Positions 14,961 through 64,000 of a stretch of 64,000 bases of DNA are shown here, one piece after another (within the stretch, counting starts at the first letter, position 1; every line of letters starts with the position of its first letter). Origin of the DNA: Candidatus Omnitrophota bacterium (lineage in GTDB: Bacteria; Omnitrophota; Gorgyraeia; Gygaellales; Gygaellaceae). A program made the position numbers and the translations under genes. The notes below the pieces were generated by a model. It had not been told where the DNA came from. It saw only the letters and a list, made by a program, of their open reading frames with translations, and ran no database searches. The stretch is from the NCBI GenBank assembly GCA_018400015.1, contig JAGYNB010000001.1:264124-328123 (forward strand), given 5' to 3'.

Positions 14961-14963
14961 TTT

Positions 14964-34661: not shown

Positions 34662-36042
34662 TAATTTAATTAGTTATTTGGATGTATTTTTCCAAAAAGA
34701 TTGCTTTGAAAGAATAAATTCAATTATTGATCCGGATAGCCTTCAATTTAAGCCTGCCAAAGAAGTTTACGAAGATTTAAGATATTATGTGTCTAGATTT
34801 AAGACTAACAAATTCGAATTTAACAGTTATTGCAATTTAAATACGGGTTTTCTATCAAAATTGTGCGATTTGATTATTAACGCTGATTTCTGTATCAAGT
34901 GGTCGAGCCCCGCAGTTTTCAAAAAGGATTTTAACGAAGATAATATTCTACAATTAAAGAAATCAGGATGTTATAGACTTGTTTTTGATTTGTTCTCTGC
35001 ATCGGATAATTTTCTTGAAAGAATGAAAATACCTTTTGACAGCCGAGTGGTTATAAATATATTGCAAAAGTGTAAAGAGCATGGGATTGATGTTGGAATT
35101 AGGTTGTTGTTTTATCATCCGCAGTCAGATATAACTGATTTTGATAACACATTGGAGTTTATTCGTTTAAATTCAGAATATATCAAGGAGATATCCTGCG
35201 TTGACTTATGTATTAGCTCTTTTTTGCGACAGCCTAGATGCAGGAATTTTTATTCCTGCAAAGGCGATAGTAATAATAATTATTCTTCTTTGGCTAAGCG
35301 CATCATGAAACCTTACCGCATAATCAAAGATTTAGGTATTCCGGCGGTTGTTTTTTCTCCATCTGAACAGCAGTTTGATTTAATCAATAGTTTCTTTACT
35401 CGCCACGTAATTTGTAACAGAAATTTATCTTTAGTTTTTGATGGCGGTTGTTGCCATATTTTCTGGAAGAATATGCGCTTAACTAAAGGTTTCGGAATAT
35501 ATACATCTATTTTTGCTTTAGGTAATTGGCAAGATTCTCGGCAGGTCGATTGGAAATTTGTCTGTAAAGACAATTCTAGCATAGTTGTTGTTGGCAATTG
35601 GAAATTCTTGCCTATAGTACAGCAATGGCGTATAGAGATGTTTGCTGAAAATAAGATTTCTTTTTGTGTAACTATGGAAATCAAGGATGGTATCATTATA
35701 GATGGTGAACAGCAGTTTAATGTCATGTTAGACTCAGTATATAAAAGCTGGTTTTTCTCTAAAGATCTTTCCAATATTTTTCCAGAATTTTTTAACAAAG
35801 AGTGGGTTAATTTATTTGAGAAAACAATTGAACACGCTGATTGTATTGGCGTTGAGGCAAATTCTGAAAAATTCCCTGATTTGAGATTGCGCTGCGATTT
35901 TTTCCATGGAAGAAAGCTGGCCGTATTGAACACGCCATTAGAGTTTAGTTCCAGAAAGCTTAAGGCATATTTTTTCGACATGAATAAAAAACCACCAGGG
36001 GAAATAGTTTATTTTAAAGGAGAGATTTTAATTGGCAAATAA
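34651..36042 (+). CDS. Degenerate radical-SAM-like (no CxxxCxxC) protein fused to Wzt-CTD-like domain
   Basis: 463 aa; residues ~90-190 align to the distal half of the B12-rSAM barrel of ORF 36032 (LKKSGCYRLVFDLFSASDNFLERM... vs KAGCTRLCYGIESASDDVLKRM...) but the Cys triad is absent. Residues ~255-380 carry NWQDSRQVDWKFV...WKFLPIVQQWRI...YKSWF. Confidence 0.5.
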   Translation: MESNNLISYLDVFFQKDCFERINSIIDPDSLQFKPAKEVYEDLRYYVSRFKTNKFEFNSYCNLNTGFLSKLCDLIINADFCIKWSSPAVFKKDFNEDNILQLKKSGCYRLVFDLFSASDNFLERMKIPFDSRVVINILQKCKEHGIDVGIRLLFYHPQSDITDFDNTLEFIRLNSEYIKEISCVDLCISSFLRQPRCRNFYSCKGDSNNNYSSLAKRIMKPYRIIKDLGIPAVVFSPSEQQFDLINSFFTRHVICNRNLSLVFDGGCCHIFWKNMRLTKGFGIYTSIFALGNWQDSRQVDWKFVCKDNSSIVVVGNWKFLPIVQQWRIEMFAENKISFCVTMEIKDGIIIDGEQQFNVMLDSVYKSWFFSKDLSNIFPEFFNKEWVNLFEKTIEHADCIGVEANSEKFPDLRLRCDFFHGRKLAVLNTPLEFSSRKLKAYFFDMNKKPPGEIVYFKGEILIGK

Positions 36043-38002: not shown

Positions 38003-38021
38003 GCAAAAAAATAATAAAATT

Positions 38022-49139: not shown

Positions 49140-49862
49140 ATGTTTTTCGAGATAAAAGACCTAACAGTTGAAGTTGAAGGTAAAACAATACTTAGAGATA
49201 TCAATCTTTCTATTGATAAAGATGAGGTTATGGTTCTTTTTGGTCCTAATGGAAGCGGGAAGACTACGCTTTTAAGGGCGATAATGGGTTTTGCTGGTTA
49301 TAAAGTAATTCAAGGTGAAATCATCTTTGAAGGCGAAAGAATAAATAATCTAACTATAGATGAGCGTGCCAGGCTTGGGTTAGGTATAATATATCAGCAC
49401 CCCGCGAGTATAAGGGGTGTAAAATTACATCAGATTGCCAGTTTTTTAACTAAAGATGATTCAAAAATAAAAGATCTCTCTCAGAGGCTGTCGCTTAGCA
49501 AGCATCTTGACAGAGACTTAAACCAGGGTTTTTCCGGAGGCGAGATGAAGCGGTCTGAGCTGTTTCAGATAATCCTGCAGGATTCTAAATTTCTCTGTCT
49601 TGACGAGCCGGAATCAGGAGTTGATATAGAAAATATTTCTATCATGGGTAAAGTTTTAGGCGAATATATTACCAAGTTAAAGAAATCCGCACTTGTAATA
49701 ACGCATACAGGATATATTCTAGATTATATAAATGCACAAAAAGGTTGTGTTATGATTGACGGGAAGCTTTGGTGTGTAGGCAATCCCAGACATATGTTTG
49801 AAAAAATCAAAGAGCTAGGCTATGAAAAGTGTAAAGACTGCCTCATCAGGAAAAGTACTTAA
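49140..49862 (+). CDS. sufC: Fe-S cluster assembly ATPase SufC
   Basis: 240 aa; Walker A GPNGSGKTTL, signature FSGGEMKRSE, Walker B LCLDEPESG. Confidence 0.85.
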   Translation: MFFEIKDLTVEVEGKTILRDINLSIDKDEVMVLFGPNGSGKTTLLRAIMGFAGYKVIQGEIIFEGERINNLTIDERARLGLGIIYQHPASIRGVKLHQIASFLTKDDSKIKDLSQRLSLSKHLDRDLNQGFSGGEMKRSELFQIILQDSKFLCLDEPESGVDIENISIMGKVLGEYITKLKKSALVITHTGYILDYINAQKGCVMIDGKLWCVGNPRHMFEKIKELGYEKCKDCLIRKST

Positions 49863-50946
49863 TACTAATCTGAAAAAGAATGATGTAGAGATTATTTCCT
49901 CTTCGGGAATGGATTTTTCTCAAGATAAACGCTCTGGGAGTTTTCTGCAATCCGATAATAAAATAGAGTTTATGAATACTTTGTATGACGGCCTTGATAT
50001 TATCGATATGGAAACCGCCCTGAAGAAAATACCTGAGGCAAAGAAATACTATGCGCGGGCTTTCAAGGAGTTAAAAAGAGATTTCCCCAAAGGCACAAAA
50101 GGCGGTTATTTTATTAGGGTAAAAAAAGGGACTGTCTTAAAGTTGCCCATACAGGCATGCCTGTTTTTAAAACAAAAAGCCTTTAAGCAAAAGGTGCATA
50201 ATTTGATAATTATTGAGGAAGGTGCAAAAGTTTATCTTATAACTGGTTGTTCCGCATCTAAAAGCGCATTTCATGCACACCATTTGGGTATATCTGAATT
50301 TTTCGTGAAAAAGGGAGCTTATTTGAATTTTACAATGATACATTCCTGGAAAGAAGATACTTTTGTGAAACCGATGAGCATTGCTATTGTAGAAGAAGAT
50401 GCTACATTTATATCAAATTACATATCTTTAAAACCTGTAAAGGAAGTTCAGATGTATCCTACGGCAGTATTAAAAGGGAAATCTGCCAGAGCGAGTTTTA
50501 ATTCTTTAATACTTTCTCATCCAGGCTCTGTCCAGGATATAGGTTCACGGGTGATATTTAAAGCTAAAAATACTCAAGCCGAGGTGATTTCCCGGGCAAT
50601 AAGCCTGGGTGGAAAGGTTATTGCCAGAGGTCATTTAAAATCAGAAGTTCCTCAAGTAAAGGCGCATCTTGAGTGCCGCGGTTTGATCTTGTCAGAAAAA
50701 GGGACTATACATGCTATTCCTGAAATGGAATCAGATTATAGAGATGTGAACATGTCTCATGAGGCAGCAATTGGAAAAATCAATAAAGAAGAGATAGAAT
50801 ATCTTTGTTCCAGGGGTTTTACGAGAAATCAAGCGCAATCAATTATAGTAAGAGGTTTTATGGATGTTGATGTTTTAGGTCTTCCTCAAGAGTTGAAGCA
50901 GGGAATAGAAGATTTAGAGAACAAAACTCTTCAGTCAAGTTTTTAG
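49822..50946 (+). CDS. SufB/SufD-family Fe-S assembly protein
   Basis: 374 aa; C-terminal beta-helix region similar to the SufBD fold (AHLECRGLILSEKGTIHAIPEME); the 41-nt overlap with sufC suggests the true start may be an internal Met. Confidence 0.65.
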   Translation: MKSVKTASSGKVLNTNLKKNDVEIISSSGMDFSQDKRSGSFLQSDNKIEFMNTLYDGLDIIDMETALKKIPEAKKYYARAFKELKRDFPKGTKGGYFIRVKKGTVLKLPIQACLFLKQKAFKQKVHNLIIIEEGAKVYLITGCSASKSAFHAHHLGISEFFVKKGAYLNFTMIHSWKEDTFVKPMSIAIVEEDATFISNYISLKPVKEVQMYPTAVLKGKSARASFNSLILSHPGSVQDIGSRVIFKAKNTQAEVISRAISLGGKVIARGHLKSEVPQVKAHLECRGLILSEKGTIHAIPEMESDYRDVNMSHEAAIGKINKEEIEYLCSRGFTRNQAQSIIVRGFMDVDVLGLPQELKQGIEDLENKTLQSSF

Positions 50947-50949
50947 AAG

Positions 50950-51660
50950 ATGAATTCTTTTAAGGCAAAATTGGTTGAAAAAATAAAGCGGACTCCCACC
51001 ATAGAGAGTTTTAGGTTTTCTATAATTGATAAACTTTCTTTTTTGCCGGGTCAGTATATTCAGGTTATGTTTGATTCGAGTAATCCTGATAATACAAAAA
51101 TAAATAAATATTTATCAATTTCCTGTTCGCCGTCAAAGGACTATATTGAAGTTACTAAAAGGTTGAGCGAGAGTGATTTCTCGTATCGTTTAAGGTCTTT
51201 GAAAGAGGCAGATGAATTAAGCTTCTCAGGTCCTTTTGGCAATTGTGTTTTTAGGCCCGAGTTTGAGAAAATAGCTTTTCTCATAGGCGGGATAGGCATT
51301 ACTCCTGTAATTTCTATGCTTGAGTATGTTGCCGAAAAAAACCTTTCTACGGATAGCATATTATTGTATTCTAATAGAAGTACAGAAGAAGCAGCCTTTA
51401 AGGATGTTTTAGATGGCTTTAGCGGGCATTCAAAGAACATAAAAACTATTTTTACCGTAAGCGAAGAAAGTGTTCAAAATCAAGATTATTTATATGGGCG
51501 GATTGATAAGACAATGGTGGAAAGCTATATGCCTGATTTTCAGCAGAGAATATTTTTTATTTTTGGGCCAGGCGCCATGGTAGAAGCCATGGTAAAGATT
51601 TTAAAAGATTTAAAAGTGCAAGAAGCCAACATAAAAAAAGAAGTCTTTATCGGCTATTAA
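50950..51660 (+). CDS. FNR-like FAD/NAD(P)-binding oxidoreductase
   Basis: 236 aa; FAD-binding barrel + NAD Rossmann (FLIGGIGITP, FIFGPGAM); no C-terminal Fe-S Cys cluster. Confidence 0.55.
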   Translation: MNSFKAKLVEKIKRTPTIESFRFSIIDKLSFLPGQYIQVMFDSSNPDNTKINKYLSISCSPSKDYIEVTKRLSESDFSYRLRSLKEADELSFSGPFGNCVFRPEFEKIAFLIGGIGITPVISMLEYVAEKNLSTDSILLYSNRSTEEAAFKDVLDGFSGHSKNIKTIFTVSEESVQNQDYLYGRIDKTMVESYMPDFQQRIFFIFGPGAMVEAMVKILKDLKVQEANIKKEVFIGY

Positions 51661-51671
51661 AAGGAGGCTTT

Positions 51672-52064
51672 ATGAAGACTATAAAAGAATTATTTAACAG
51701 CGCAGATTGGAAATTGGAAAAACATGTTCCGGTGATTGAGGTCAAAGGCAGTATTAAAAAGAGCGAGAATATAAATTTTAGTGTGAGCGTAGGAAAAGAA
51801 ATTACACATCCCAACACAACCGAACATCACATAGTTTATATGGAGGTATATTTTCTTCCTGATGCGGAGAGAAACCCGTATCTTCTTGGAAGGGTGGATT
51901 TTTCTGCGCATGGCGCATCTGTAAAAGGGCCTAATACAAGCGGTGTTTATACTGCTGCGATGATTGAATTGAGTTTTAAAACAGATTCACCCGGTACGAT
52001 TTTAGCATATAGCTACTGTAATATTCACGGGCTTTGGGACAGTTCTTACGAATTAAAGTTCTAG
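51672..52064 (+). CDS. sor: Superoxide reductase (neelaredoxin-type desulfoferrodoxin family)
   Basis: 130 aa; EKHVPVIE catalytic Glu-Lys-His motif plus His/Cys ligands (HPNTTEHH, CNIHG). Confidence 0.8.
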   Translation: MKTIKELFNSADWKLEKHVPVIEVKGSIKKSENINFSVSVGKEITHPNTTEHHIVYMEVYFLPDAERNPYLLGRVDFSAHGASVKGPNTSGVYTAAMIELSFKTDSPGTILAYSYCNIHGLWDSSYELKF

Positions 52065-52073
52065 GAGATTATT

Positions 52074-52940
52074 TTGGAAAATAAGCTTAAGCAAAAAATC
52101 ATAAATTTAGAAAATAACGAATTTACGGAATATCTTATCTACCAAAAAATTTCTAAATTAGTAAAGGATAAATCTCAATCGGAGGTTTTATCGCAGATTG
52201 CACAGGAAGAGTTAAAACACTGCGATATCTTTAAGTCTATCACTAAAGTAGAGCCAAAGCCGAAGCATTTAAAGCTGATTTTTTATGTTTTAACCGCGAG
52301 ATTATTGGGCCTTACTTTTGCTTTAAGGCTTATGGAATCCCAGGAAGGCTTAGCGCAAAGCACATATGAAAAAGTTAGTCAGATAGATTCGAGGATTGAA
52401 GAAATTATTAAAGATGAGAATAAGCATGAGAATGCACTTATTGATCTTATAAATGAAGACCGTCTTAAATATGTAAGTTCAATAGTGTTAGGTTTAAACG
52501 ATGCCTTGGTGGAATTAACCGGTGCATTGGTTGGATTTACCCTTGCGCTTCAGAATACCCGCCTTATTGCAATAGTCGGACTTATTACAGGGATAGCTGC
52601 TTCTATGTCTATGGCTGCTTCGGAATATTTATCCACAAAGCAGGAAAAGACCGACAAGAACCCCTTAAGGGCGAGTATCTATACAGGTTTTGCATATGTG
52701 TTAACGGTGTTATTTTTAGTTTTTCCGTACTTTTTATTGGAAAATGTAGTTTTATGTTTATTGTTGGTCATTTTCAATGCACTGCTGGTGATAGTTATAT
52801 TTACTTTCTATATTTCGGTTGCAAAGCAGTTATCTTTTAGAAAGCGTTTCTTAGAGATGGCTTCTATAAGCTTGACCATCGCCGGTATTAATTTTGTTAT
52901 TGGTCTAGGCATCAGAAAATTTTTCGGTATAGATATTTAA
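52074..52940 (+). CDS. Ferritin-like domain fused to VIT1/CCC1-family iron transporter
   Basis: 288 aa; N-terminal diiron-like EELKHCDIF...ENKHE helices; C-terminal 5-TM VIT1 region (GLNDALVELTGALVG). Confidence 0.65.
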   Translation: MENKLKQKIINLENNEFTEYLIYQKISKLVKDKSQSEVLSQIAQEELKHCDIFKSITKVEPKPKHLKLIFYVLTARLLGLTFALRLMESQEGLAQSTYEKVSQIDSRIEEIIKDENKHENALIDLINEDRLKYVSSIVLGLNDALVELTGALVGFTLALQNTRLIAIVGLITGIAASMSMAASEYLSTKQEKTDKNPLRASIYTGFAYVLTVLFLVFPYFLLENVVLCLLLVIFNALLVIVIFTFYISVAKQLSFRKRFLEMASISLTIAGINFVIGLGIRKFFGIDI

Positions 52941-52958
52941 TTAAACAAGGAGGATATA

Positions 52959-53135
52959 ATGGGACCTGTCGAAGCATTGAAAATAGCTCTTTCTAAGGAA
53001 GAAAGCTCCGTAGAGTTGTATACCAGACTTTCAACACAAGCGCCGGCAGCTCGTGATATTCTTCTTTTTTTAATTGAAGAAGAGCAAAAACATAAACATC
53101 TGATTGACAAAAAAATAGCAGAGTTAACAACCTAA
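52959..53135 (+). CDS. Small ferritin/rubrerythrin-like fragment protein (58 aa)
   Basis: Not in the ORF track (<60 aa). RBS aaggagg 5 nt upstream. Sequence MGPVEALKIALSKEESSVELY...LLFLIEEEQKHKHL resembles the first helix pair of ORF 54171. Confidence 0.3.
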   Translation: MGPVEALKIALSKEESSVELYTRLSTQAPAARDILLFLIEEEQKHKHLIDKKIAELTT

Positions 53136-53145
53136 AGGATAAACG

Positions 53146-53610
53146 ATGGTTAGTTTATCTATAGATGTGATCAAATTCTTCGAACGTCAGGGTTGCGTAT
53201 TGGTGGCGACTTTTTCTAGTGACGGCAGTATACATAATTCCTGTAAAGGCATTGTCAGGATTAACAAAAAAGGCGAAGTTTATATAATGGATCTTTATAA
53301 AGCAGTTACTTATAACAATCTTCAAAAAGATCATAGGATTTCCATAACGGCTTACAATGAAACTAAATTTACCGGATATAGCCTAAAGGGAAGAGCTAAA
53401 ATTCTTCCAGAAAGTGGCATAACAGCATCACTTTTAGATGATTGGAATAAAAGACTTACTTCAAGAATAGCCACAAGATTACTGGATAATATAAAAAGTA
53501 ATAATTCTTTAGCTCGACATCATGAAGCTCATTTGCCCAAGCCTAATTATTTAATTGTTATTCAGGTTGACGAAGTGGTTGATCTTGCTCCAAAAGAAGT
53601 GAAAATTTAG
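53146..53610 (+). CDS. Pyridoxamine 5'-phosphate oxidase-like FMN-binding split-barrel protein
   Basis: 154 aa; size and the GCVLVATFSSDGSIHNS pattern fit the PNPOx-like fold. Confidence 0.5.
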   Translation: MVSLSIDVIKFFERQGCVLVATFSSDGSIHNSCKGIVRINKKGEVYIMDLYKAVTYNNLQKDHRISITAYNETKFTGYSLKGRAKILPESGITASLLDDWNKRLTSRIATRLLDNIKSNNSLARHHEAHLPKPNYLIVIQVDEVVDLAPKEVKI

Positions 53611-53619
53611 AGGTGTTTT

Positions 53620-54156
53620 ATGTTTGTTTTGGCAATTAATGCAAGTCCAAGAATAAACGGAAATACGGATATATTGATTGATAAGGTATTGGAGGGGTTT
53701 ATTTCTAAAGGCTGTGATAGCGAGAAAATATATCTTGATAAACTTAACATAGCAGCTTACCGCGATGATCTGCCGCAGGATGATTTTAATAATGTTTTAG
53801 AGAAAATTAAAGCTGCTGATATTTTGATTTTGGGCTCACCGATATATTTTGGCAGCATGACAGCTCAATTAAAAACATTGATCGATCGCTTTCAAAGCGT
53901 GTGGGAAGATAAAATATTCAGAGGGTTAAATTTTTCGCACAAGAGGCAAAAGGGTATTTTTATATCCGTTCAGGGTGATAAAAAAAGCTCATATTTCGAT
54001 AATGCAAGATCTATCATTAAAAACTTTTTTGCTGTTACGGGCATAGAATATTCTAATGAATTATTTTGTACTGAGTGCGAAGATAAGCAAGACGTTTTAA
54101 ATAATAATGATTTACTGCAAGAAGCTTTTGAAATGGGGAAAGACTTTTCATTTTAA
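53620..54156 (+). CDS. Flavodoxin-like NAD(P)H-dependent FMN reductase
   Basis: 178 aa; the AINASPRINGNT...ILILGSPIYFGSMTAQLKTLIDR motif is typical of the NADPH-dependent FMN reductase / iron-sulfur-flavoprotein family (no Isf Cys cluster). Confidence 0.65.
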   Translation: MFVLAINASPRINGNTDILIDKVLEGFISKGCDSEKIYLDKLNIAAYRDDLPQDDFNNVLEKIKAADILILGSPIYFGSMTAQLKTLIDRFQSVWEDKIFRGLNFSHKRQKGIFISVQGDKKSSYFDNARSIIKNFFAVTGIEYSNELFCTECEDKQDVLNNNDLLQEAFEMGKDFSF

Positions 54157-54170
54157 TAAAGGAGAATTTT

Positions 54171-54668
54171 ATGGAAAATAAGATTTCCGGAGCGGAGTTG
54201 TTAAATATCGCTGTTAGAATTGAAAATAATGGTTATGCTTTTTATGATCAGTTTGCTAAAAAGGCTAAAGATAACGCAGTAAACGCTATGCTTATTTATT
54301 TAAGAGACGAAGAAAAGAAACACTCGGATAAATTTAGCTATATGCTAGAAGAATTGCATAAAAAAGCTGGTCAAGAAAGCCTTTATACGCAGGAATACTC
54401 TGCTTATATAAAAAGTATTGCTTCAAAGCTAGTATTTTCTCAAGAAAATACAGGTATAGAGATTGCTCAAGAAATGAAAAGCGATAAACAGGCAATTGAG
54501 AAGGCGATTGAATTTGAAAAAGATTCTATCCGTTATTATAATGCGATGAAAGAAGCGGTTTCTGAAGGAGAAAAGAACGTATTGGAAGAAGTGGTACATG
54601 AAGAAGAGGTGCATCTTGAGAAATTATCAGGTTTATTGGCAGGTTTAGAGAATGCAGGAGGTGTTTAA
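54171..54668 (+). CDS. Rubrerythrin/ferritin-like diiron protein
   Basis: 165 aa; paired E...EEKKH and EFEKDSIRYY...EEEVH helices consistent with a ferritin-like four-helix bundle. Confidence 0.55.
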   Translation: MENKISGAELLNIAVRIENNGYAFYDQFAKKAKDNAVNAMLIYLRDEEKKHSDKFSYMLEELHKKAGQESLYTQEYSAYIKSIASKLVFSQENTGIEIAQEMKSDKQAIEKAIEFEKDSIRYYNAMKEAVSEGEKNVLEEVVHEEEVHLEKLSGLLAGLENAGGV

Positions 54669-54905
54669 ATGAATAAGAATGTAATAGTGTATAGTACGCC
54701 TACATGTCCATATTGCGCGAAACTTAAAGATTTCTTAAAAGAAAATAATATTAATTTTACCGAATTTGATGTTTCTACTGATTTAACAGCAGCCCAGGAG
54801 ATGACTTCCAAGACAGGCCAGATGGGCGTGCCTGTTTTGGATATTGAGGGAGAAATTATTATTGGTTTTGATAAGGAAAAGATAAAATTCATTTTAGAAA
54901 TTTAA
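54669..54905 (+). CDS. Glutaredoxin-like protein
   Basis: 78 aa; YSTPTCPYCAKLKDFL CPYC active site; GVPVL cis-Pro region. Confidence 0.75.
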   Translation: MNKNVIVYSTPTCPYCAKLKDFLKENNINFTEFDVSTDLTAAQEMTSKTGQMGVPVLDIEGEIIIGFDKEKIKFILEI

Positions 54906-55943: not shown

Positions 55944-57479
55944 TTAAAGAAGCGGAAGATATTTTTTGATTTCGTGTTGGGTAATTTGGATTCTGTATTC
56001 TTCCCACTCCTTCCTTTTGTTAAACAGGAACCTGTTAAATATATGGTTTCCCAGAGTTTCTTTTACGAATTGGCTGTTTTCGGTCTCTAATATTGCCTCA
56101 AACAGGTTCCCCGGCAAAGATGTAAGGCCGCGTTTTTCTCGTTCTTCCATGGCCATGTGGTATATATTTGGTTCTACCGGATCGGGAAGAGGGTATTTTT
56201 TTTCGATTCCTTCTAAACCTGCAGTGAGCATTACAGCAAACGCAAGATATGGATTGCATGCCGGGTCAGGGCAGCGCAATTCTGCGCGTGTTGCTTTTTC
56301 ATTACCAGGTCTATACATCGGTACTCGTATGAGCGTGGTTCTGTTTTTCTGCGCCCAGGAAGCGTATACAGGGGCTTCGTATCCTGAGACAAGCCTTTTA
56401 TATGAGTTTACCCACTGTGCAGTTAGAGAACATATTTCCCTGGCGTGTTTTAGCTGTCCGGAAATAAAATATTTGGCAATGCTTGATAAATGATGTCTGT
56501 CTTTTTTATCATAAAATGCGTTTTTGTCTTTATTGAACAATGATTGATGTATATGCATTCCAGAGCCGTTAAAACCGAATAAAGGCTTTGGCATAAAAGT
56601 AGCGTATACGCCGTTTTGTTGGGCGATTTCTTTTATGACGTACTTACAGGTGATTACGTTATCTGCAGCTTTTAAAGCGCTGGTGTATTTGGGGTCTATT
56701 TCGTGCTGGCTGGGCGCTACTTCATGGTGCGTAGCTTCCATAGTAATACCCATTTCTTCAAGAGTTCTTACAGTTTTATTTCTTAATGTGTTAGCTAAAT
56801 CATTAGGTATTAATTCGAAATACGACCCTTCGTCGATTATTTCAGGATTTTTCTCTGATTTAAAATAAAAGTATTCTATTTCCGCTCCGATCATAAAATC
56901 AAACCCGATTTTTTTAGCTCTTGCAAGGGCTCTTTTGAGAACATGCCTTGGGTCTCCTGCGTAAGGGGTTCCGTTCGTGGTGAGTATATCGCAGAACATC
57001 CTGGCAACAGGGTAATCTTTTGTTGTCCAGGGTAGTATTTTAAAAGTTGATGGGTCTGGAAGAGCAATGATATCGCTTTCTTCAGCCTCGGCAAAACCGG
57101 TGACAGAGGAGCCGTCAAAACCTTTGCCGTGTTCAAGAGCATCTTTTAACTCTCCCTTAGTGATAGAGACGCATTTTAAGATGCCCAGGATATCTACAAA
57201 CCAAAGCTGTATTGTTCTTATATCGTTTTGGTCAACTATTCTTAGAATTTCTTTAATCGAGGTTTTGTCTGAGGTGGTTGGTAAAGATGAAAAATTTGAT
57301 TGTTTATATGTGACAGTATTAAATCCTTTTTGGTTTTCGATTTCCTCCAAGGCAATAATGTATTGTTTACCTACTTTTTCTGCCTTTAATGATCCGTGGT
57401 TTATGCGTTCTATCACGGCCTGTCTTGAGATCTTAAGTACTTTGGCAGCTTCTGTAGGGCTTAAAAAATCCTTTTTCAT
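55944..57479 (-). CDS. glnA: Glutamine synthetase type I with N-terminal excisionase/MerR-like HTH DNA-binding domain
   Basis: GS motifs GFDGSS, KPLFGFNGSGMHIHQSL, NPYLAFAVMLTAGL; N-terminal ~65 aa LSPTEAAKVLKISRQAVIERI is an HTH_17-like domain. ATG at 57479 has a perfect RBS aaggagg; the tracked ORF extends to a TTG at 57497. Confidence 0.8.
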   Translation of the reverse strand: MKKDFLSPTEAAKVLKISRQAVIERINHGSLKAEKVGKQYIIALEEIENQKGFNTVTYKQSNFSSLPTTSDKTSIKEILRIVDQNDIRTIQLWFVDILGILKCVSITKGELKDALEHGKGFDGSSVTGFAEAEESDIIALPDPSTFKILPWTTKDYPVARMFCDILTTNGTPYAGDPRHVLKRALARAKKIGFDFMIGAEIEYFYFKSEKNPEIIDEGSYFELIPNDLANTLRNKTVRTLEEMGITMEATHHEVAPSQHEIDPKYTSALKAADNVITCKYVIKEIAQQNGVYATFMPKPLFGFNGSGMHIHQSLFNKDKNAFYDKKDRHHLSSIAKYFISGQLKHAREICSLTAQWVNSYKRLVSGYEAPVYASWAQKNRTTLIRVPMYRPGNEKATRAELRCPDPACNPYLAFAVMLTAGLEGIEKKYPLPDPVEPNIYHMAMEEREKRGLTSLPGNLFEAILETENSQFVKETLGNHIFNRFLFNKRKEWEEYRIQITQHEIKKYLPLL

Positions 57480-57490
57480 AGTTACCTCCT

Positions 57491-57555
57491 TTGACAATTG
57501 TTATGTTACTTTACGATTGACAAATGAATTATAACATATGATTTACGTTTGTCAA
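57491..57555. promoter_or_regulatory. Repeated TTGACAA half-sites / inverted repeat in the glnA-crtI divergent intergenic region
   Basis: TTGACAA at 57491-57497 and 57517-57523; inverted partner TTTGTCAA at 57548-57555 (TTGACAAA-n23-TTTGTCAA). Confidence 0.35.
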
Positions 57556-57651
57556 GTAGTTTTTATATTATTTTTGCTGTTATATTCAATTGAAAAAAAC
57601 CCTTGTTTGTATATATTTTTGGCAATAGAATAGTAATAACAGGAGGTTGCT

Positions 57652-59091
57652 ATGGCTGGTAAAATTATAGTTGTTGGTGCAGGAATTGGCGGTTTGGCTA
57701 CAGCAGCAAGATTATCAAGCAAGGGGTATGATGTTGAAGTGTTTGAGAAACTTCCTGTATGTGGAGGCAGAAACAATATAATAGAAGATAGAGGTTTTAA
57801 GTTTGATACAGGGCCTTCGTTTGTTTTGATGCCGGATTTTTTCGAAGAATTGTTTACATATTGCAATAAAGATATCAAAGATTATTTGGATTTAAAGGTA
57901 TTGGACCCAAGCTACAAGATTTTTTATCCGGATTCAGATGTTTTAACTGTTTTTAAAGATAGCGATAAAACCAAAGAGGAGCTGGAAAGAATAGAAAAGG
58001 GCGCTGCAAAAGGCTTTGATGGCTTTATCCGCGAGACCACCCGGCTTTATAATATAACTAGACCTTTATTGTACAAGTGCTTTTCTAAAAAAACCCTTTT
58101 TGACGTTAGATACCTACCGTTATTATTTAAGCTTAATCCTTTAAAAAGTTACTGGGATATTGCCAAGAAGTTTTTTAAAAGCGAGAAACTGCTTTATGCA
58201 TTTACTTTTGAGGCGATGTTTATGGGGGTTTCTCCTTTTAATGCTCCGGGTTTTTATAGTATTATCAGCTATGCCGACCATGTGCAAAAAATCTTTCATC
58301 CTATGGGCGGGATGTATGAAATACCCAAAAGCCTTGAGAAGATTTGTTTAGAAAACGGTGTGAAGATTCACTATAATTCACCGGTTAGTAAAATAAATAA
58401 GATCAACCGCAAGCTAAGCATTTCAACAGATACTATGATTACTGAAGCAGATAAAGTTGTTGTAAACGCCGATTATTCTTATACTCAGGAAAGTCTTTTA
58501 AAAAGAAAACTGCCTGATTATAAATATAGCTGCAGCGTATATCTGATTTATTTGGGTTTAAAGAAGAAATTAGGTCCTTTAGCGCATCATAATCTGTTTT
58601 TTTCTTCAAATCTTATAAAGAACCTGGATGAGATCTTTTCCTTAAAGAATGTTCCTGGCGATCCGTCTTTTTATATTCATGTGCCTACGGTTACAGATTC
58701 CAGTTTGGCTCCGGAAGGCAAGGAGATACTATATTTATTGATTCCCGTGCCTAATCTGGATAATCCAAAAGAAGATTTTTACTCAAAAGAGATTTATTTA
58801 AGGAATATTGTGTTTAATAAGATAAATAAAACCCTTGATATAAATCTGGAAGATTTAATTGAAGTCGAGCATAGGTTTTACCCCAAGGATTTCATCGGAA
58901 AATACAATATCAAATTTGGTGCAACCTTTGGTCTGGCCCATAATCTTATGCAGAGTGCTTTTTTTAGGCCTGTAAATTTCGACAATAAGTTCAGGAATCT
59001 TTATTTTGTAGGTGCAAGTACCCAGCCAGGTGGTGGATTGCCGGTTGTTATAGCAGCATCGAGAATAGTGGCAGATTTGATAACTCTTTAA
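57652..59091 (+). CDS. crtI: Phytoene desaturase-family FAD-dependent oxidoreductase (CrtI/CrtN-like)
   Basis: 479 aa; VVGAGIGGLATAARL...FEK..V.GGR Rossmann; C-terminal FVGASTQPGGGLPVV motif of the CrtI family. Confidence 0.75.
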   Translation: MAGKIIVVGAGIGGLATAARLSSKGYDVEVFEKLPVCGGRNNIIEDRGFKFDTGPSFVLMPDFFEELFTYCNKDIKDYLDLKVLDPSYKIFYPDSDVLTVFKDSDKTKEELERIEKGAAKGFDGFIRETTRLYNITRPLLYKCFSKKTLFDVRYLPLLFKLNPLKSYWDIAKKFFKSEKLLYAFTFEAMFMGVSPFNAPGFYSIISYADHVQKIFHPMGGMYEIPKSLEKICLENGVKIHYNSPVSKINKINRKLSISTDTMITEADKVVVNADYSYTQESLLKRKLPDYKYSCSVYLIYLGLKKKLGPLAHHNLFFSSNLIKNLDEIFSLKNVPGDPSFYIHVPTVTDSSLAPEGKEILYLLIPVPNLDNPKEDFYSKEIYLRNIVFNKINKTLDINLEDLIEVEHRFYPKDFIGKYNIKFGATFGLAHNLMQSAFFRPVNFDNKFRNLYFVGASTQPGGGLPVVIAASRIVADLITL

Positions 59092-59936
59092 TAAAGCTTA
59101 CTTAATTTTCTAATGTATTTGATCACTGCGTTAGTTGTAACATCAGGTGTAGAAGCCCCTGCAGTTACGCCAACACTTTTTACATTTTTAAGCCACTCTT
59201 TTTTAATATCAGTAGGTTTATTAACCCAGTAACTGTTTTTATTAAGTTCACGTGAGATTTGATAAAGCCTTTTTGTATTGGCGCTGTGTTTAGATCCGAT
59301 AATGATCATCACATCGTTTTCTAACGGGAGTTTCTTTATTTCTTTTTGTTTGAGCCTGGTAGGGTTACAGATGGTGTTAAAAAACATAAGGTGTTTTATG
59401 ACTTTTTTTAAATTATTTGAAACTCGCATCACCTTATTGTAATTTTGCGTAGATTGAACGACAACAGCTGCTTTTTTTACTTTTTTCAATGTTTTTAAAG
59501 GCAGTTTATGTTTTGTATCAATTAAAATAGCTTTTTTATCCAGCTGTCCAAGGATACCCAGGACCTCATCGTGTTTTTTGTCCCCGATAACTATTATCTT
59601 ATAACCTTTCTTTTCCATGGTCACAGCTATGTTATGGATTTCTTTTACCATGGGACAGGTGGCGTCTACAATGTTATATCCTAATTTATTAGCAGAGTTT
59701 ATTGTTTGTTTCCCTACCCCGTGTGCCCTGACAAGTAAGAGTTTATTTGTGCCCTTTTTTAGCTTAGTGACTTTTTTGATTCCGATTTTACTGATTTGTT
59801 TTACAACATCTTCGTTGTGTACGATATCTCCGAGCATCTCTACATTAAGGTGGGGTTTTTTGGTTTCATGGGCAATTTTTAAAGCGCGTTTTACCCCGAA
59901 GCAAAAACCAGCTGATTTTGCAAGATTGATTTTCAT
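59088..59936 (-). CDS. ispH: 4-hydroxy-3-methylbut-2-enyl diphosphate reductase IspH (LytB)
   Basis: 282 aa; MKINLAKSAGFCFGVKRAL N-terminus with the first cluster Cys; later Cys ligands (ATCPMV, NTICNPT). Confidence 0.85.
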   Translation of the reverse strand: MKINLAKSAGFCFGVKRALKIAHETKKPHLNVEMLGDIVHNEDVVKQISKIGIKKVTKLKKGTNKLLLVRAHGVGKQTINSANKLGYNIVDATCPMVKEIHNIAVTMEKKGYKIIVIGDKKHDEVLGILGQLDKKAILIDTKHKLPLKTLKKVKKAAVVVQSTQNYNKVMRVSNNLKKVIKHLMFFNTICNPTRLKQKEIKKLPLENDVMIIIGSKHSANTKRLYQISRELNKNSYWVNKPTDIKKEWLKNVKSVGVTAGASTPDVTTNAVIKYIRKLSKLY

Positions 59937-60814
59937 GATAGGTTCCTTAAGATATGCTTTAATAGGGTCATTATTTTTTTTATATTACTGACGTATATTC
60001 TTTTTGAGAATACATCATAACCTTTTTTTTCTATTTCTTCAAGAATAAGGGAGTAGATTTCACTCATTAAGGCAACCAACATTCGGAACTGTTTTTGTTT
60101 TATAAGCGCTATGCCTTGTTTTGAATGGAAGTAATAGCTTTTTGCTCTTTTAACCTGCATTTTTAATAGGTCTATAAAATCGTTATTTAAAGTGGAATCT
60201 TTGATATCATTTTCGCATAAATTGTATTGTTTTAATTCGTCAAGCGGCAGGTATATTCTGTTTCTGAAGTAATCTTCTTTTATGTCCCTGATTATATTGG
60301 TTAGTTGCATGGCAATTCCAAGCTCAATTGCGTGTTTTTGGGCGTCTTCATTATCTATGCCGATTATTTTAAGCAGCATAAGCCCGATTACCCCAGCAAC
60401 TTTATAGCAGTAGCTGTAAAGTTCGTTAAAATTACTGTACCTATTTTTATCTAGGTCTATCTCCATTCCTGAGATGAGTTCAATGAAGTATTCTTTTGGT
60501 ATGGAATATTTATTGGTAATGTGTCTGAGTGCCAGAAATAGATTCTCCTTGATTGGCTGGCTGCTATAAGAGATATTTATTTTAGATTTAATGTTATTTA
60601 GCTTATTCGCGGCGTTTACAGGGGTTAAATCAACGGCTTCATCAATGAGTCTACATACTGCATAAATACAGTAACAGGCAATTCTTTTTTCTTTGTTTAA
60701 TACCTTAGAGGCAAAGTAGAATGTCTTGGCGTGTTTTTTGGTTATGTATTGTGCCTTTTTAAAACCTGCCTCAAGTGAGTTTTCGGGTTTACGAATCATG
60801 AAAGTATTGTACAA
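59933..60814 (-). CDS. crtB: Phytoene/squalene synthase-family enzyme (CrtB-like)
   Basis: 293 aa; YCYKVAGVIGLM and GIAMQLTNIIRDIKED...RIYLP trans-isoprenyl diphosphate synthase head-to-head motifs. Confidence 0.75.
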   Translation of the reverse strand: MYNTFMIRKPENSLEAGFKKAQYITKKHAKTFYFASKVLNKEKRIACYCIYAVCRLIDEAVDLTPVNAANKLNNIKSKINISYSSQPIKENLFLALRHITNKYSIPKEYFIELISGMEIDLDKNRYSNFNELYSYCYKVAGVIGLMLLKIIGIDNEDAQKHAIELGIAMQLTNIIRDIKEDYFRNRIYLPLDELKQYNLCENDIKDSTLNNDFIDLLKMQVKRAKSYYFHSKQGIALIKQKQFRMLVALMSEIYSLILEEIEKKGYDVFSKRIYVSNIKKIMTLLKHILRNLS

Positions 60815-60845
60815 CTAACTTTGGTTTATTCCAAGAAGGATTTGA

Positions 60846-61190
60846 TTGTATTGTTTTTGGCTTTGCAGTAAAATAGTAGTAATGTCAGATTATATGCTTG
60901 TTTTACTATTATCGGTTTCGGTTCCTTTGGTGCTTAGTTTCTATCCAAAACTTAGATTCTACCAGAATACAAGAGCACTTTTTCTAAGTATAGGCTGTAT
61001 TTTACTTATTTTCGGCTCTTGGGATGTGTTTGCTACCTGGCGCGGGCACTGGTTTTTTAATCCAGAGAAAATTTTTGGTGTCCATGTAATTAATCTTCCC
61101 TTGGAAGAGGTTTTGTTTTTTATCGTGATTCCGTTTTGCTGTATTTTTACCTGGGAAGCCCTTAAGTTCATAAGAAAACGCATAAAATGA
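60846..61190 (+). CDS. Lycopene cyclase domain protein (CrtYc/CrtYe-like half)
   Basis: 114 aa, 3 TM; conserved INLPLEEVLFF (hPhEE) motif of heterodimeric carotenoid cyclases. Confidence 0.65.
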   Translation: MYCFWLCSKIVVMSDYMLVLLLSVSVPLVLSFYPKLRFYQNTRALFLSIGCILLIFGSWDVFATWRGHWFFNPEKIFGVHVINLPLEEVLFFIVIPFCCIFTWEALKFIRKRIK

Positions 61191-61477
61191 AAGAGTATAC
61201 TATCCTTGCGGCAATTTCTGTTATCGTAACCTGCTATATGGATAAAAAGCTGGATACGAAACTGCTTAAAAACGGACTTTTTTATCTGTTTATAGTTATT
61301 ATTTTCGGTTTTAAGCTGCTTGTTAACGGCTTTCTAACCGGTGAAGGGATCGTGCTTTATAATCCAGATTTTTTTCTGGGAGTTAGAATTACAAGCATTC
61401 CCTTAGAGGATTTTTTATTCGGCTTCAGCATGGTTACAATGAATGTCATCTTTTGGGAAAAATTAAAAAAGGAATGA
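61187..61477 (+). CDS. Lycopene cyclase domain protein (CrtYd/CrtYf-like half)
   Basis: 96 aa, 3 TM; TSIPLEDFLFGF motif; overlaps the stop of the partner gene. Confidence 0.65.
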   Translation: MKEYTILAAISVIVTCYMDKKLDTKLLKNGLFYLFIVIIFGFKLLVNGFLTGEGIVLYNPDFFLGVRITSIPLEDFLFGFSMVTMNVIFWEKLKKE

Positions 61478-62340
61478 AAAAGATAATTTTTATATTAGGA
61501 CTCTTATTGTTAGTTACAGTAAATATTGTTTTTTGTTTTGATTGGCGTAGTCTGCATGAAAAGGCCACCGTAAACGATTTAAAAGATCTTGATTCTGTAA
61601 AGCTGGACCCGCTTGAGAAAACCTATATACAAGCTTTAATTAATTTAAGTTTACATAATGACGTTAAAGCCAGAGATTTTTTTGAAGACATCCTTGAGAG
61701 AGATTCCAAAAACATTGCTGCCCTCTGGGGCACTGCAGAGGTGTTGCGTAGAGAGCATAAACTTGAAGAAAGCGAAAAGATTTTAAATAAAATTATAAAG
61801 ATAGATAAGGGTTTTGCGCCTGCCTATATAAGCCTTTCTTATATTCAATATATAAATTTGAATTTCGAGGATTCCGTTAGGCTCGCTGCTTATGTTATCA
61901 AACAAGGAAAAGATAAGGTTGGTACGGATAATTATGTCAGGGCTATATTGATGTTTGCAGGCGCCAAGGGGATGATTGCTCATTTTGGCGGGCCATTGTC
62001 AAAGGCAATAAATGGCATAAAAGTTTTTCCTAACTTGAAAAGGGCCGAAAAGATTCTTCCAGATGCTCCTGCGGTTTTATTCGGTTTAGGCAGTTTTTAT
62101 CTGCTTGCTCCTTCGATAATCGGCGGTGATTTGGAAAAAGCAGAGGAATACTTAAGAAAAGCCATAGAAAAAGATCCTTTATTTGTGGATCCATACGTCC
62201 GGCTTGCTCAAGTATATAGATTAAATAACAAAGAGGAAGAGTTCAGCAGGGTTTTAAATAAGGCATTAGAAATCGATCCAAAAAGCGAGCTTGCTCTTGA
62301 TATAAAATCAGGAGAGTGTAATTTTATCTGTTTTAAGTAG
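61453..62340 (+). CDS. TPR-repeat protein with N-terminal signal/anchor
   Basis: 295 aa; N-terminal hydrophobic segment; multiple TPR-like A..Y..LG...A helix pairs. Confidence 0.55.
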   Translation: MGKIKKGMKKIIFILGLLLLVTVNIVFCFDWRSLHEKATVNDLKDLDSVKLDPLEKTYIQALINLSLHNDVKARDFFEDILERDSKNIAALWGTAEVLRREHKLEESEKILNKIIKIDKGFAPAYISLSYIQYINLNFEDSVRLAAYVIKQGKDKVGTDNYVRAILMFAGAKGMIAHFGGPLSKAINGIKVFPNLKRAEKILPDAPAVLFGLGSFYLLAPSIIGGDLEKAEEYLRKAIEKDPLFVDPYVRLAQVYRLNNKEEEFSRVLNKALEIDPKSELALDIKSGECNFICFK

Positions 62341-63414
62341 TTAGTTGAGGATTTTATTGGTCAGGTCTTTAAGAATCTTTTTATAGCGTTTATCCATTCT
62401 TGATTTGTTAAGGAAGGTTTCCACCTTAGTATTTAATTTCACAATTTCTCTTTTTGCGTAAGCCAAAGATCCGCTTTGTATCAACAGTTTTCGCATCTGC
62501 AGAAGGTCTGATTTCTTTACCTTATTTTTATTCAATATTTTTTTAATAATCTGTTTATTTTTGCTGGATATGTTATAGGCGTGCCAAATAAGCAGGGTTT
62601 TTTTTGCTTCTTGAAGATCTGTCAAAGATGATTTGCCGCTTTGTTTTTGTTCGGTGAACATTCCGATTATATCATCTTTTATCTGAAACGCCCTCCCGAG
62701 ATTCAAGCCAATTTTAAATACTTTATTTATTTCTGATTTATTTGCCCCAGCAAGTATTGCTCCTGTTGCCAAAGGTGCGGCAAAGGTATATATGGCTGTT
62801 TTTAAGTCGTATATTTTATATATTTTTTCTTTTTTAATCTTTTCTAAATTCTGAGTGCCGTAAAGAAGTTCAATAAACTCCCCGCTGCCTGTGAATATTG
62901 CAGCTTCTATGAATTTTTTCAACGCCCTTTCTTTTAAGGAGAAATCAACTTTTACGCTTAAGAAAGCATGTATTGCAAGGGCATACATTACATCTCCTAC
63001 GACTATAGCAAGATCGCTACCTGTTGTTTTGGGCGATTTATATCGCTTGAGGTAATTATCAAGCGCTTTATGCATTGAAGGTTTGCCGCGTCTTTTATCC
63101 GACCTGTCGATTATGTCGTCATGAACAAGCATAAAGTCATGCAGGAGCTCCAAAGAAAGAGCAGATCTGTACAGACCAGAAGGGTTACTCTTAGAAAACG
63201 CTTTGAAGCCTACAATTAGAAGCAAAGGGCGGATTCGTTTTCCGGGTCGCAGAAGAAATTCCTTTATATTATTCGATAATATCGGCGAAATTTTCTTCAA
63301 TCCGCAGGTTTTATCTATATCTTTGAGGAATATTTTTAACTCTTGATTAAGTGTATTTTTTATTTTATGCAGCATTGTTTTATGATACCATATAGCTAGT
63401 TTAATCACAATCAA
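62341..63414 (-). CDS. crtE: Polyprenyl diphosphate synthase (GGPP synthase / CrtE-IspA family)
   Basis: 357 aa (true start probably the internal Met ~14 codons in); FARM LVHDDIIDRSDKRRGKPS and SARM FQIKDDIIG motifs. Confidence 0.8.
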   Translation of the reverse strand: MIVIKLAIWYHKTMLHKIKNTLNQELKIFLKDIDKTCGLKKISPILSNNIKEFLLRPGKRIRPLLLIVGFKAFSKSNPSGLYRSALSLELLHDFMLVHDDIIDRSDKRRGKPSMHKALDNYLKRYKSPKTTGSDLAIVVGDVMYALAIHAFLSVKVDFSLKERALKKFIEAAIFTGSGEFIELLYGTQNLEKIKKEKIYKIYDLKTAIYTFAAPLATGAILAGANKSEINKVFKIGLNLGRAFQIKDDIIGMFTEQKQSGKSSLTDLQEAKKTLLIWHAYNISSKNKQIIKKILNKNKVKKSDLLQMRKLLIQSGSLAYAKREIVKLNTKVETFLNKSRMDKRYKKILKDLTNKILN

Positions 63415-63437
63415 ATTTACTTAGTTTAACTAAACTA

Positions 63438-64000
63438 TGAATTTACTCAGGGCATTAAGAATCGAGTTTTTAAGCGTGAGTATTCTGCCGTTTATTTTCG
63501 GCAGTCTAGTCGATATAAGCAGTTTTAAGATCTTAACGTTCTGTTTAGGTATGATTTGTGTTATTTTTATGCATCTAAGCGCTAACTTGATTAACGATTA
63601 TGCAGATTCTTGCTATGGAGCGGATAATATCGATAAGAGGTTTTATAAACTTTTCGGCGGGTCAAAACTTATACAGGAGGGCGTTTACTCGAAACTGTTT
63701 TTCCTAAGACTGTCAATTGGCCTTGCTTTAGTTAGTTTTATAATGGCGATTAGCTTATCTATTTTGGTAAAAAGTTTTATTCCCGTAGTTTCTTTTCTGG
63801 TTATAGTTTTTCTCGGTTGGTCTTATTCTGTAGGTTTTTTTCGCTTTGTTTACAGGAGAACGGGAGAGCTTATTATATTTACTCTTTTTGGCCCGGCAAT
63901 AGTAATGGGAGCTTTCTTTTTACAGACAGGAGTATTCCCTAGTTTTAAGGCGTTTATATTATCAATACCTTTTGGTTTTTTAACAACATCGATTTTATTT
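63438..64000 (+). CDS. UbiA-family prenyltransferase (N-terminal part; runs off window)
   Basis: Polytopic; NDYADSCYGADNIDKR is the UbiA Asp-rich prenyl-diphosphate binding motif (NDxxDxxxD-like). Position after crtE suggests a carotenoid elongase/prenyltransferase. Confidence 0.6.

Follow-up and report, generated by a model that had tools for sequence, protein, structure and literature searches.

The locus at positions 57652-64000 of a 64,000-nucleotide (nt) stretch of Candidatus Omnitrophota bacterium DNA (contig JAGYNB010000001.1, positions 264,124 to 328,123; referred to below as the window) probably carries ordinary C40 carotene genes nested in a conserved isoprenoid locus of ispH, tetratricopeptide repeat (TPR), geranylgeranyl diphosphate (GGPP) synthase, MenA-like, NDH-2 and DoxX genes, that is, two layers without C5 elongation. 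This view was built on family assignments, synteny and co-occurrence. A sequence-only reading had previously described the locus as a C50 carotenoid cluster in which a UbiA-family enzyme serves as lycopene elongase. Its inventory was recovered completely, with 8 of 8 genes in place (CrtI, IspH, a CrtB-like synthase, two cyclase-domain proteins, a TPR protein, a polyprenyl synthase and UbiA); the elongase was not. Genes in 57652-64000 were called from an open reading frame (ORF) listing together with Pfam and NCBIfam scans, and are as follows (aa, amino acids).

57652-59091, plus strand: crtI, CrtI-family carotene desaturase, 479 aa (TIGR02734, 420 bits)
59088-59936, minus strand: ispH, 4-hydroxy-3-methylbut-2-enyl diphosphate (HMBPP) reductase, 282 aa, second gene after crtB (PF02401, 287 bits)
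59933-60814, minus strand: crtB, phytoene-synthase-type head-to-head prenyl synthase, 293 aa from TTG (PF00494, 231 bits)
60882-61190, plus strand: cycA, first lycopene-cyclase-domain subunit, CrtYc/Yd-like, 102 aa (PF18916, TIGR03462; longest ORF from 60846)
61187-61477, plus strand: cycB, second lycopene-cyclase-domain subunit, 96 aa (PF18916, TIGR03462)
61474-62340, plus strand: TPR protein with N-terminal hydrophobic signal or anchor, 288 aa (several TPR Pfam families; ORF from 61453)
62341-63414, minus strand: short-chain (GGPP-type) polyprenyl diphosphate synthase, 357 aa from TTG (PF00348, 184 bits)
63440-64000, plus strand: UbiA-family prenyltransferase, 5′ part, 187 of 294 codons, MenA/UBIAD1-like (100% match to P0001)

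The UbiA gene is cut at the window edge, as had been noted beforehand, and a public 294-aa protein (P0001) that is identical to the fragment was used as full-length UbiA. Homologues of P0001 at 52-60% identity are nearly all labelled Omnitrophota or Omnitrophica, and the homologue lists for both UbiA and CycA are dominated by generically named Omnitrophota sequences. At an E-value limit of 10, P0001 matched ten MenA-type NCBIfam models with 45-113 bits, and the sole other match was the generic prenyltransferase model NF009523 (27 bits). No curated MenA cut-off was reached (NF004751, 112.6 bits against 264; TIGR00751, 82.2 bits against 102.15), and the protein is therefore called MenA-like rather than MenA. 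Its single match among solved structures in the PDB was UBIAD1, the animal menaquinone-4 (MK-4) synthase. In a BLASTP comparison with the E. coli K-12 proteins, MenA aligned with P0001 over 261 aa (26% identity, E=8e-17, 65 bits), whereas UbiA gave a local alignment only (24 bits). In P0001 the first Asp-rich motif reads NDYADSCYGAD and is spaced as in MenA, NDxxD-x5-D (NDYGDAVKGSD in E. coli MenA), unlike the NDxxDxxxD spacing found in E. coli UbiA, a LyeJ orthologue and an Arthrobacter enzyme.

The latter two served as reference elongases and were chosen by genomic context. On a Halocatena salina plasmid (L086) the order is crtI-family gene (crtD), prenyltransferase, cruF and phytoene synthase; the CruF passes its equivalog model (NF041333, 356 bits, cut-off 300), and because of the crtD/cruF arrangement the prenyltransferase was identified as a LyeJ orthologue. 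The Arthrobacter reference is a 399-aa cyclase-subunit::prenyltransferase fusion, encoded on a megaplasmid after crtE-crtB-crtI and a 129-aa cyclase subunit; this cluster has the Dietzia LbtA/LbtBC-type C50 architecture. The complete C50-type cluster lies on the Arthrobacter sp. StoSoilB13 plasmid NZ_AP024649.1 (L087, 6315-7900), at a place where PLSDB lists no gene; the whole 1.0-Mb record has one annotated feature there.

The elongase-clade models NF009516, NF009608 and NF010119 gave 426, 109 and 133 bits with the LyeJ orthologue and 134, 469 and 150 bits with the Arthrobacter fusion; none of the three matched P0001 even at E<=10, and the MenA equivalogs were matched by neither reference. 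A hidden Markov model (HMM) built from 33 Omnitrophota UbiA proteins scored 75.9 bits with E. coli MenA, 12.2 with the LyeJ orthologue, 3.9 with E. coli UbiA and 1.1 with the Arthrobacter fusion. When the window and 83 related loci were searched by tblastn, E. coli MenA detected the UbiA gene in 75 loci; LyeJ, the CrtEb-type Arthrobacter fusion, CruF and E. coli UbiA matched nothing there. The DGGGPS model (digeranylgeranylglyceryl phosphate synthase) did not match P0001, and an archaeal-lipid reading of the enzyme was dropped. On these scores and motifs the window UbiA is a divergent member of the MenA/UBIAD1-like family and not a C50 elongase. Because it falls, by models, HMM, UBIAD1 match and motif, with the menaquinone-type prenyltransferases, the outcome that had been named in advance as speaking against an elongase, the C50 inference is unsupported.

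For comparison of related loci, one genome per GTDB species was scanned for UbiA relatives, which were found in 543 species; the best match to the window UbiA was 53% identical. The best 80 of the 543 species loci were taken together with flanks of up to 10 kb, as far as the contigs extended. Counts refer to 83 loci overall, to the 46 in which the flank upstream of UbiA spans at least 7 kb, to 67 loci for the NDH-2-like gene and to 51 for DoxX. At least six further Omnitrophota species genomes, among them the closed chromosome CP070807.1 (L046), have exactly the order crtI (+), ispH (−), crtB (−), cycA (+), cycB (+), TPR gene (+), polyprenyl synthase (−) and UbiA (+), and about ten more species show minor variants of it; the gene arrangement in the window is not due to chance. 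CrtI orthologues with 58-69% identity occupy the same position in Omnitrophota loci. Per-gene tblastn counts in the 83 loci were 74 for the polyprenyl synthase, 50 for the TPR protein, 33 for IspH, 21 for CrtB, 18 for CrtI and 17 for each cyclase subunit, with cycA and cycB always together in the 16-17 related loci that carry them.

The two layers separate in this comparison. The polyprenyl synthase gene adjoins UbiA in 42 of 46 loci, and the UbiA gene is retained in the 32 of 46 in which no crt gene lies within the fetched locus; crtI, crtB and the cyclase genes are present together in 8, crtI and crtB in 2, and crtB alone in 3 of the same 46. The TPR gene stands beside the polyprenyl synthase and UbiA genes in 50 of 83 loci, many of them without crt genes, and ispH adjoins the TPR gene or the polyprenyl synthase gene in crt-free loci also. 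Since in most species that lack crt genes at the locus UbiA still stands beside the polyprenyl-synthase and NDH-2-like genes, the carotenoid genes are nested in the isoprenoid locus and not the converse. The earlier reading is supported in so far as ispH, coupled to crtB by an ATGA overlap, is co-transcribed with it; its description of ispH as embedded in the carotenoid cluster is wrong about which set of genes encloses the other. Because UbiA, the polyprenyl synthase and the NDH-2-like gene persist without carotenoid genes, lycopene is not expected to be the only substrate of UbiA.

The crt layer is found in about a fifth to a third of the related species. On a neighbour-joining UbiA tree, which is poorly resolved, crt-positive loci are scattered among negative ones, and an ancient arrangement with repeated crt loss would be easier to reconcile with this pattern than one recent insertion. 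In one locus (L063) the crtI-ispH-crtB block is relocated downstream of the module. Three others (L067, L071 and L078) keep crtB-ispH beside the polyprenyl synthase and UbiA genes and have no crtI or cyclase gene within the fetched 20 kb; the lone crtB of such loci retains the Ser residue discussed below at the position of CrtM Phe26. Upstream of crtI no gene is conserved among the related loci, and no tailoring gene (hydroxylase, ketolase, CrtU desaturase or glycosyltransferase) is conserved in the block across them.

Gene starts and overlaps in the window were refined as follows. Comparison with 16 orthologues placed the most likely CycA start at ATG 60882 (102 aa), which corrects the ORF start at 60846; for the TPR protein, ATG 61474, which shares bases with the stop codon of cycB, is the most likely start, in correction of 61453. 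Alternative starts are an internal ATG at about 60799 for crtB and ATG 63375 for the polyprenyl synthase. A strong Shine-Dalgarno sequence (AGGAGG) lies upstream of crtI, and the 3′ ends of crtI and ispH converge with a 4-nt overlap. ATGA overlaps link the ispH ATG with the crtB stop, the cycA stop with the cycB start, and the cycB stop with the TPR start; the TPR and polyprenyl synthase genes are convergent with zero gap, and the polyprenyl synthase and UbiA genes are divergent. From these overlaps and orientations the predicted transcription units are crtI; crtB-ispH; cycA-cycB-TPR; polyprenyl synthase; and UbiA with whatever comes next. UbiA is therefore separated from cycB by the TPR and polyprenyl synthase genes and belongs to a different predicted unit. 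In the reference clusters, the elongase gene lies directly 3′ of the cyclase gene, is fused to it, or lies 5′ of cruF. Scans of 57300-64000 showed no excess of promoters (29 against 21.7±5.1 in shuffled controls) or terminators (6 against 5.0±2.4). The hydrophobic N-terminus of the TPR protein agrees with the signal sequence that had been ascribed to it.

The claim of a real carotenoid gene set beside a short-chain (GGPP-type) prenyl synthase was supported by the CrtI, phytoene-synthase-type and cyclase families. CrtI passed the phytoene desaturase family model TIGR02734 (420 bits, cut-off 238), and its best PDB match was Pantoea CrtI (4dgk, 226 bits). For CrtB no equivalog cut-off was reached (NF045686, the cyanobacterial CrtB model, 231 bits of 550; NF045921, 156 of 500; NF042419, 141 of 480); by its model scores it is a divergent SQS_PSY member outside the named CrtB equivalog groups. 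Alignment to CrtM located both Asp-rich motifs (DEAVD and DIKED) and a Ser residue at the position of Staphylococcus aureus CrtM Phe26; this Ser is conserved in the Omnitrophota orthologues. The role of Phe26 as the size-limiting residue was taken from published work, in which the CrtM variants F26A, F26S and F26L accepted GGPP, made phytoene and were C40-competent (PMC13304436). Phe also occupies this position in 8is6 (annotated as CrtM) and in 5iys (annotated as phytoene synthase).

Both cyclase subunits scored above the cut-offs of PF18916 and TIGR03462 (CycA, 51 and 73 bits; CycB, 62 and 53 bits), as expected from the split lycopene-cyclase-domain pair described previously, and the motifs INLPLEEV and TSIPLEDF are both present as quoted there. 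PLEE of CycA is invariant in 12 orthologues, and PLED of CycB is likewise invariant in its orthologues. CruF-type hydratases were ruled out: in scans that included the CruF families (NF041333/TIGR03460), CycA and CycB matched only lycopene-cyclase domain models, and a genuine CruF found nothing by tblastn in the window or the 83 loci. CycA was scanned against 1.84 billion representative proteins; a few split relatives of about 100 aa were followed mostly by proteins of about 225-240 aa that were matched twice and are fused two-domain cyclases (33-47% identity, 70-90 bits). Those with a taxonomic label came from Bacteroidota (Flavobacteriales, Reichenbachiella) and candidate division WS6. The Arthrobacter C50 cyclase subunit reached 26% identity and 28 bits with CycA. 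In a plasmid search for C40 heterodimeric cyclase references, CycB found no match and the Arthrobacter subunit matched only itself. We take CycA and CycB to be a heterodimeric lycopene cyclase with a presumptive C40 substrate. Ser at the Phe26 position, the coupled cyclases and the GGPP-type synthase favour a C40 pathway.

The genes of the enclosing layer were assigned in the same way. IspH passed both of its models (NF002187, 277 bits, cut-off 276; TIGR00216, 268 bits, cut-off 188). The polyprenyl synthase belongs to the polyprenyl_synt family, in agreement with the GGPP synthase call of the sequence-only reading; its first aspartate-rich motif (FARM) is DDIID, and its second (SARM) reads DDIIG, a DDxx(G/D) pattern. 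Its best NCBIfam matches were short-chain synthases, none above cut-off. Phe stands at position -5 before the FARM (F-M-L-V-H) in the window protein and in 44 of 45 orthologues, crt-positive and crt-negative alike. A bulky residue at this position limits the product to about C20, and by this chain-length rule a short (about C20) product is to be expected.

Beyond the window edge, a gene for an NDH-2-like flavoprotein of about 375 aa follows UbiA in 60 of 67 loci, and a DoxX membrane-protein gene, recognised by Pfam match, comes next in 31 of 51. Examples of this downstream arrangement are found at 10888-12021 of locus L001, 6167-7683 of L007 and 10876-12414 of L023, besides about 60 other loci. 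The best PDB matches of the flavoprotein were type II NADH:quinone oxidoreductases (4nwz and 5na1, YjlD), followed by FSP1, and it contains two GxGxxG motifs (GGGFAG and GGGYTGIE) and an AVQFAxxQG motif that resembles the NDH-2 quinone site. A reading of the flavoprotein as CoA-disulfide reductase (CoADR) was dropped, given the NDH-2-like motifs and the lack of a conserved active-site Cys among the orthologues.

It is highly improbable that UbiA adds C5 units to lycopene in the manner of CrtEb or LyeJ and that the split pair is a CrtYe/Yf-like C50 cyclase. The inventory does match superficially, with a split cyclase pair, a UbiA-family gene and crtE, crtB and crtI; UbiA enzymes are versatile, and a non-orthologous elongase is conceivable on sequence alone. 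Against this stand the MenA/UBIAD1-like character of the enzyme and its failure with all three elongase-clade models, its place two genes away from the cyclases in another unit, where reference elongases adjoin or are fused with a cyclase or hydratase, its retention with polyprenyl-synthase and NDH-2-like neighbours in the crt-free loci, and cyclases that are nearer to the fused Bacteroidota/WS6 proteins than to the Arthrobacter C50 subunit. Very unlikely, too, are C30 diapocarotenoids made from farnesyl diphosphate (FPP) by CrtM/CrtN-like enzymes, or squalene-derived products as in other bacteria of the Planctomycetes-Verrucomicrobia-Chlamydiae (PVC) group. The best solved-structure matches of the synthase are CrtM enzymes; because no genuine CrtB structure was among the matches, this ranking is uninformative for C30 versus C40, and the Phe26 position was used instead. 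There Ser replaces the C15-restricting Phe, also in the orthologues. In principle FPP could be the end product of the polyprenyl synthase, but lycopene-cyclase-domain genes are translationally coupled within the block, and natural C30 cyclases are not known. A hopanoid-type HpnD or squalene synthase had been raised beforehand as a possible alternative identity of the synthase. The HpnC/HpnD/HpnE set is incomplete: the HpnD cut-off was missed, HpnC is absent and a single SQS_PSY gene is present in the window, the CrtI-family flavoprotein reached 43 bits with HpnE (cut-off 283) against 420 with the CrtI family model, and no squalene-hopene cyclase was found in the 64 kb.

A less remote, though still unlikely, alternative is that the conserved layer of polyprenyl synthase, UbiA, flavoprotein and DoxX is something other than a quinone system, that UbiA prenylates another acceptor (an aromatic compound, a lipid head group or a cofactor) and that the flavoprotein is a disulfide or other reductase. 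The best NCBIfam matches of the flavoprotein are CoA-disulfide-reductase-type models, all far under cut-off; its nearest solved relatives are NDH-2 and FSP1, however, and it shows an AQxAxQ-type motif like that of NDH-2 and lacks a conserved cysteine of the CoADR type. Members of the DoxX family are associated with quinone oxidoreductases. In UbiA, the motif spacing is the one specific to MenA, and the alignment with E. coli MenA covers most of the protein. Several findings nevertheless weigh against C40 carotene genes within a quinone-type locus. UbiA stays under every MenA equivalog cut-off; neither men or mqn head-group genes nor quinone-dependent complexes turned up in the 64 kb; for the window genome, NDH-2-like and DoxX genes are predicted from relatives only; and a C20 tail is unusual for bacterial menaquinone. 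On the carotenoid side, CrtB scores nearly as high on HpnD (226 bits, cut-off of 279 not reached) as on cyanobacterial CrtB, and CrtI is marginally nearer to staphylococcal plasmid CrtN-type genes (33% identity) than to proteobacterial CrtI (30-31%). Genomes with crt-negative loci may carry crt genes elsewhere, as L063 suggests. A survey of the Omnitrophota reported menaquinone pathways in some lineages only and did not mention carotenoids (PMC10066038), the supplements of a quinone-distribution paper did not mention Omnitrophota, and a literature search on carotenoid, phytoene or futalosine pathways in Omnitrophota yielded no informative paper.

C40 carotene genes nested in an isoprenoid locus would operate in two layers, for which substrates, a C40 chain length, a quinone product and a redox link are proposed here. 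Layer 1, conserved across the phylum, comprises ispH, the TPR gene, the short-chain (probably GGPP) synthase and the MenA/UBIAD1-like enzyme, with the NDH-2-like and DoxX genes in relatives; layer 2, namely crtI, crtB and the split CrtYc/Yd-type cyclase, lies ahead of ispH and the TPR gene and is joined to them by the 4-nt ATGA overlaps. IspH would supply isopentenyl diphosphate and dimethylallyl diphosphate, from which the polyprenyl synthase would make GGPP. CrtB would then condense two GGPP to phytoene, CrtI would desaturate phytoene to lycopene or neurosporene, and CycA/CycB would cyclise the ends of either product to a mono- or bicyclic C40 carotene with beta, gamma or epsilon rings, with no conserved tailoring enzyme following. 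The MenA-like enzyme probably draws on the same GGPP pool to give a prenylated naphthoate-type head group, and reduction of the prenylated product by the NDH-2-like enzyme would let layer 1 make and reduce a naphthoquinone-type lipid with a short (C20) tail. The layers may plausibly be connected by redox chemistry, because CrtI needs an electron acceptor and quinones can substitute for O2 in this role (PMC3382138). A protective pigment would suit the site, given the oxidative-stress genes immediately upstream.

As a speculation that we regard as improbable but worth stating, the real conserved core may be a four-gene phylum-wide module of GGPP-type synthase, divergent MenA/UBIAD1-like enzyme, NDH-2/FSP1-like flavoprotein and DoxX, which may provide these mostly fermentative, often host-dependent nanobacteria with a short-tailed, MK-4-like quinone, its head group possibly salvaged, in analogy to UBIAD1 and FSP1 of animals. 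In carotenogenic species the quinone might also be an O2-independent electron sink for CrtI, which would be the reason that crt genes were spliced into the locus.

The remainder of the window agrees with the earlier description of an AT-rich, apparently anaerobic host. Its GC content is about 0.35, no respiratory complex is encoded in the 64 kb, and anaerobe-type genes are frequent (desulfoferrodoxin, rubrerythrins, SUF, flavodoxin-like proteins, many radical-SAM and Fe-S proteins, lactate/malate dehydrogenase). Directly upstream of the isoprenoid locus, at 49140-54905, lies an oxygen-defence and Fe-S island with SufC/SufBD, an NAD-binding oxidoreductase, desulfoferrodoxin, a rubrerythrin-like::VIT1 fusion, a PNPOx-like protein, an FMN reductase, rubrerythrin and a glutaredoxin-like protein; in the related locus L001 the equivalent position is occupied by genes for methionine sulfoxide reductase and a desulfoferrodoxin N-domain protein. 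Between the island and crtI, at 55944-57497 on the minus strand, is a glutamine synthetase gene whose product is a fusion of an N-terminal DNA-binding HTH_17 domain (residues 11-54) with Gln-synt N and C domains; the glnA promoter (57555-57528, minus strand) matches the sigma-70 consensus perfectly (12/12) and has an extended -10 TG.

A polysaccharide locus extends from 22691 to 47010. Within it, at 27977-40571, a run of giant radical-SAM (rSAM) proteins, unusual for a surface-polysaccharide locus, is placed between an O-antigen-ligase/ABC-2 exporter block and six glycosyltransferases; the proteins have 789 aa (B12-binding and rSAM), 1440 aa (three rSAM and three SPASM), 463 aa (no Pfam match), 656 aa (B12 and rSAM) and 849 aa (rSAM-SPASM and B12-rSAM). 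A second amine-oxidase-family flavoprotein (23844-25148, 434 aa, PF01593 and NAD_binding_8) adjoins a Wzy-like gene and the ABC-2 exporter in this locus and lies outside the carotenoid cluster. At 10804-15854 lie the genes for a Fur-family regulator and, after it, DUF5320, two small Nitro_FeMo-Co-like proteins, two MinD/ParA-type ATPases with inserted 4Fe-4S domains, a radical-SAM protein and an ARMT1-like phosphatase, a gene set that is recurrent in anaerobes.

The C50 claim, from which most of the interest in the locus had arisen, is unsupported, and a split cyclase pair beside a UbiA gene is insufficient by itself to indicate a C50 carotenoid pathway. What was found is a known kind of pathway in a phylum for which the literature search turned up no discussion of carotenogenesis: a substantial minority of the Omnitrophota, which are uncultured and largely anaerobic, carry a complete, syntenic C40 carotene gene set. 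The comparison also exposed a conserved GGPP-synthase/MenA-like/NDH-2-like/DoxX module, in at least 543 species genomes, in a phylum whose published survey gives a partial account of quinone biosynthesis. Should a quinone be its product, the module would matter for membrane redox chemistry in Omnitrophota and for the function of CrtI without oxygen.

Among known systems, the enzyme set is the same as in the C40 heterodimeric-cyclase clusters (crtE-crtB-crtI-crtYc-crtYd of Brevibacterium linens, Mycobacterium and Myxococcus), with which the window shares two subunits of about 100 aa, the PxE(E/D) motif and translational coupling. Unlike in those clusters, the host is an uncultured, apparently anaerobic member of the Omnitrophota, the crt genes are interleaved on alternating strands with ispH, the TPR gene and the quinone-type prenyltransferase module, and the block is without conserved tailoring genes. 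The nearest labelled relatives of the cyclase pair are the fused CrtYcd-type cyclases of Bacteroidota, together with those of candidate division WS6. With the C50 clusters (Corynebacterium glutamicum crtE-B-I-Ye-Yf-Eb, Dietzia/Arthrobacter lbtA-lbtBC and haloarchaeal crtD-lyeJ-cruF) the window has in common a split cyclase, a UbiA-superfamily gene and crtE, crtB and crtI; its UbiA differs in belonging to the MenA/UBIAD1 branch, in its Asp-rich spacing, in standing apart from the cyclase and in being conserved also where carotenoid genes are missing. Compared with MenA itself, the enzyme falls under every curated cut-off, is only 26% identical to the E. coli protein and has no head-group pathway nearby, and to our knowledge fixed operon partners (a divergent polyprenyl synthase gene and downstream NDH-2-like and DoxX genes) have not been described for MenA. 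Its sequence similarity is nevertheless nearly exclusively to MenA/UBIAD1, with which it shares the NDxxD-x5-D motif; the partner flavoprotein of its relatives resembles NDH-2/FSP1, and the partner synthase is, as for UBIAD1 (MK-4) or phylloquinone-type MenA, of the short-chain (C20) type.

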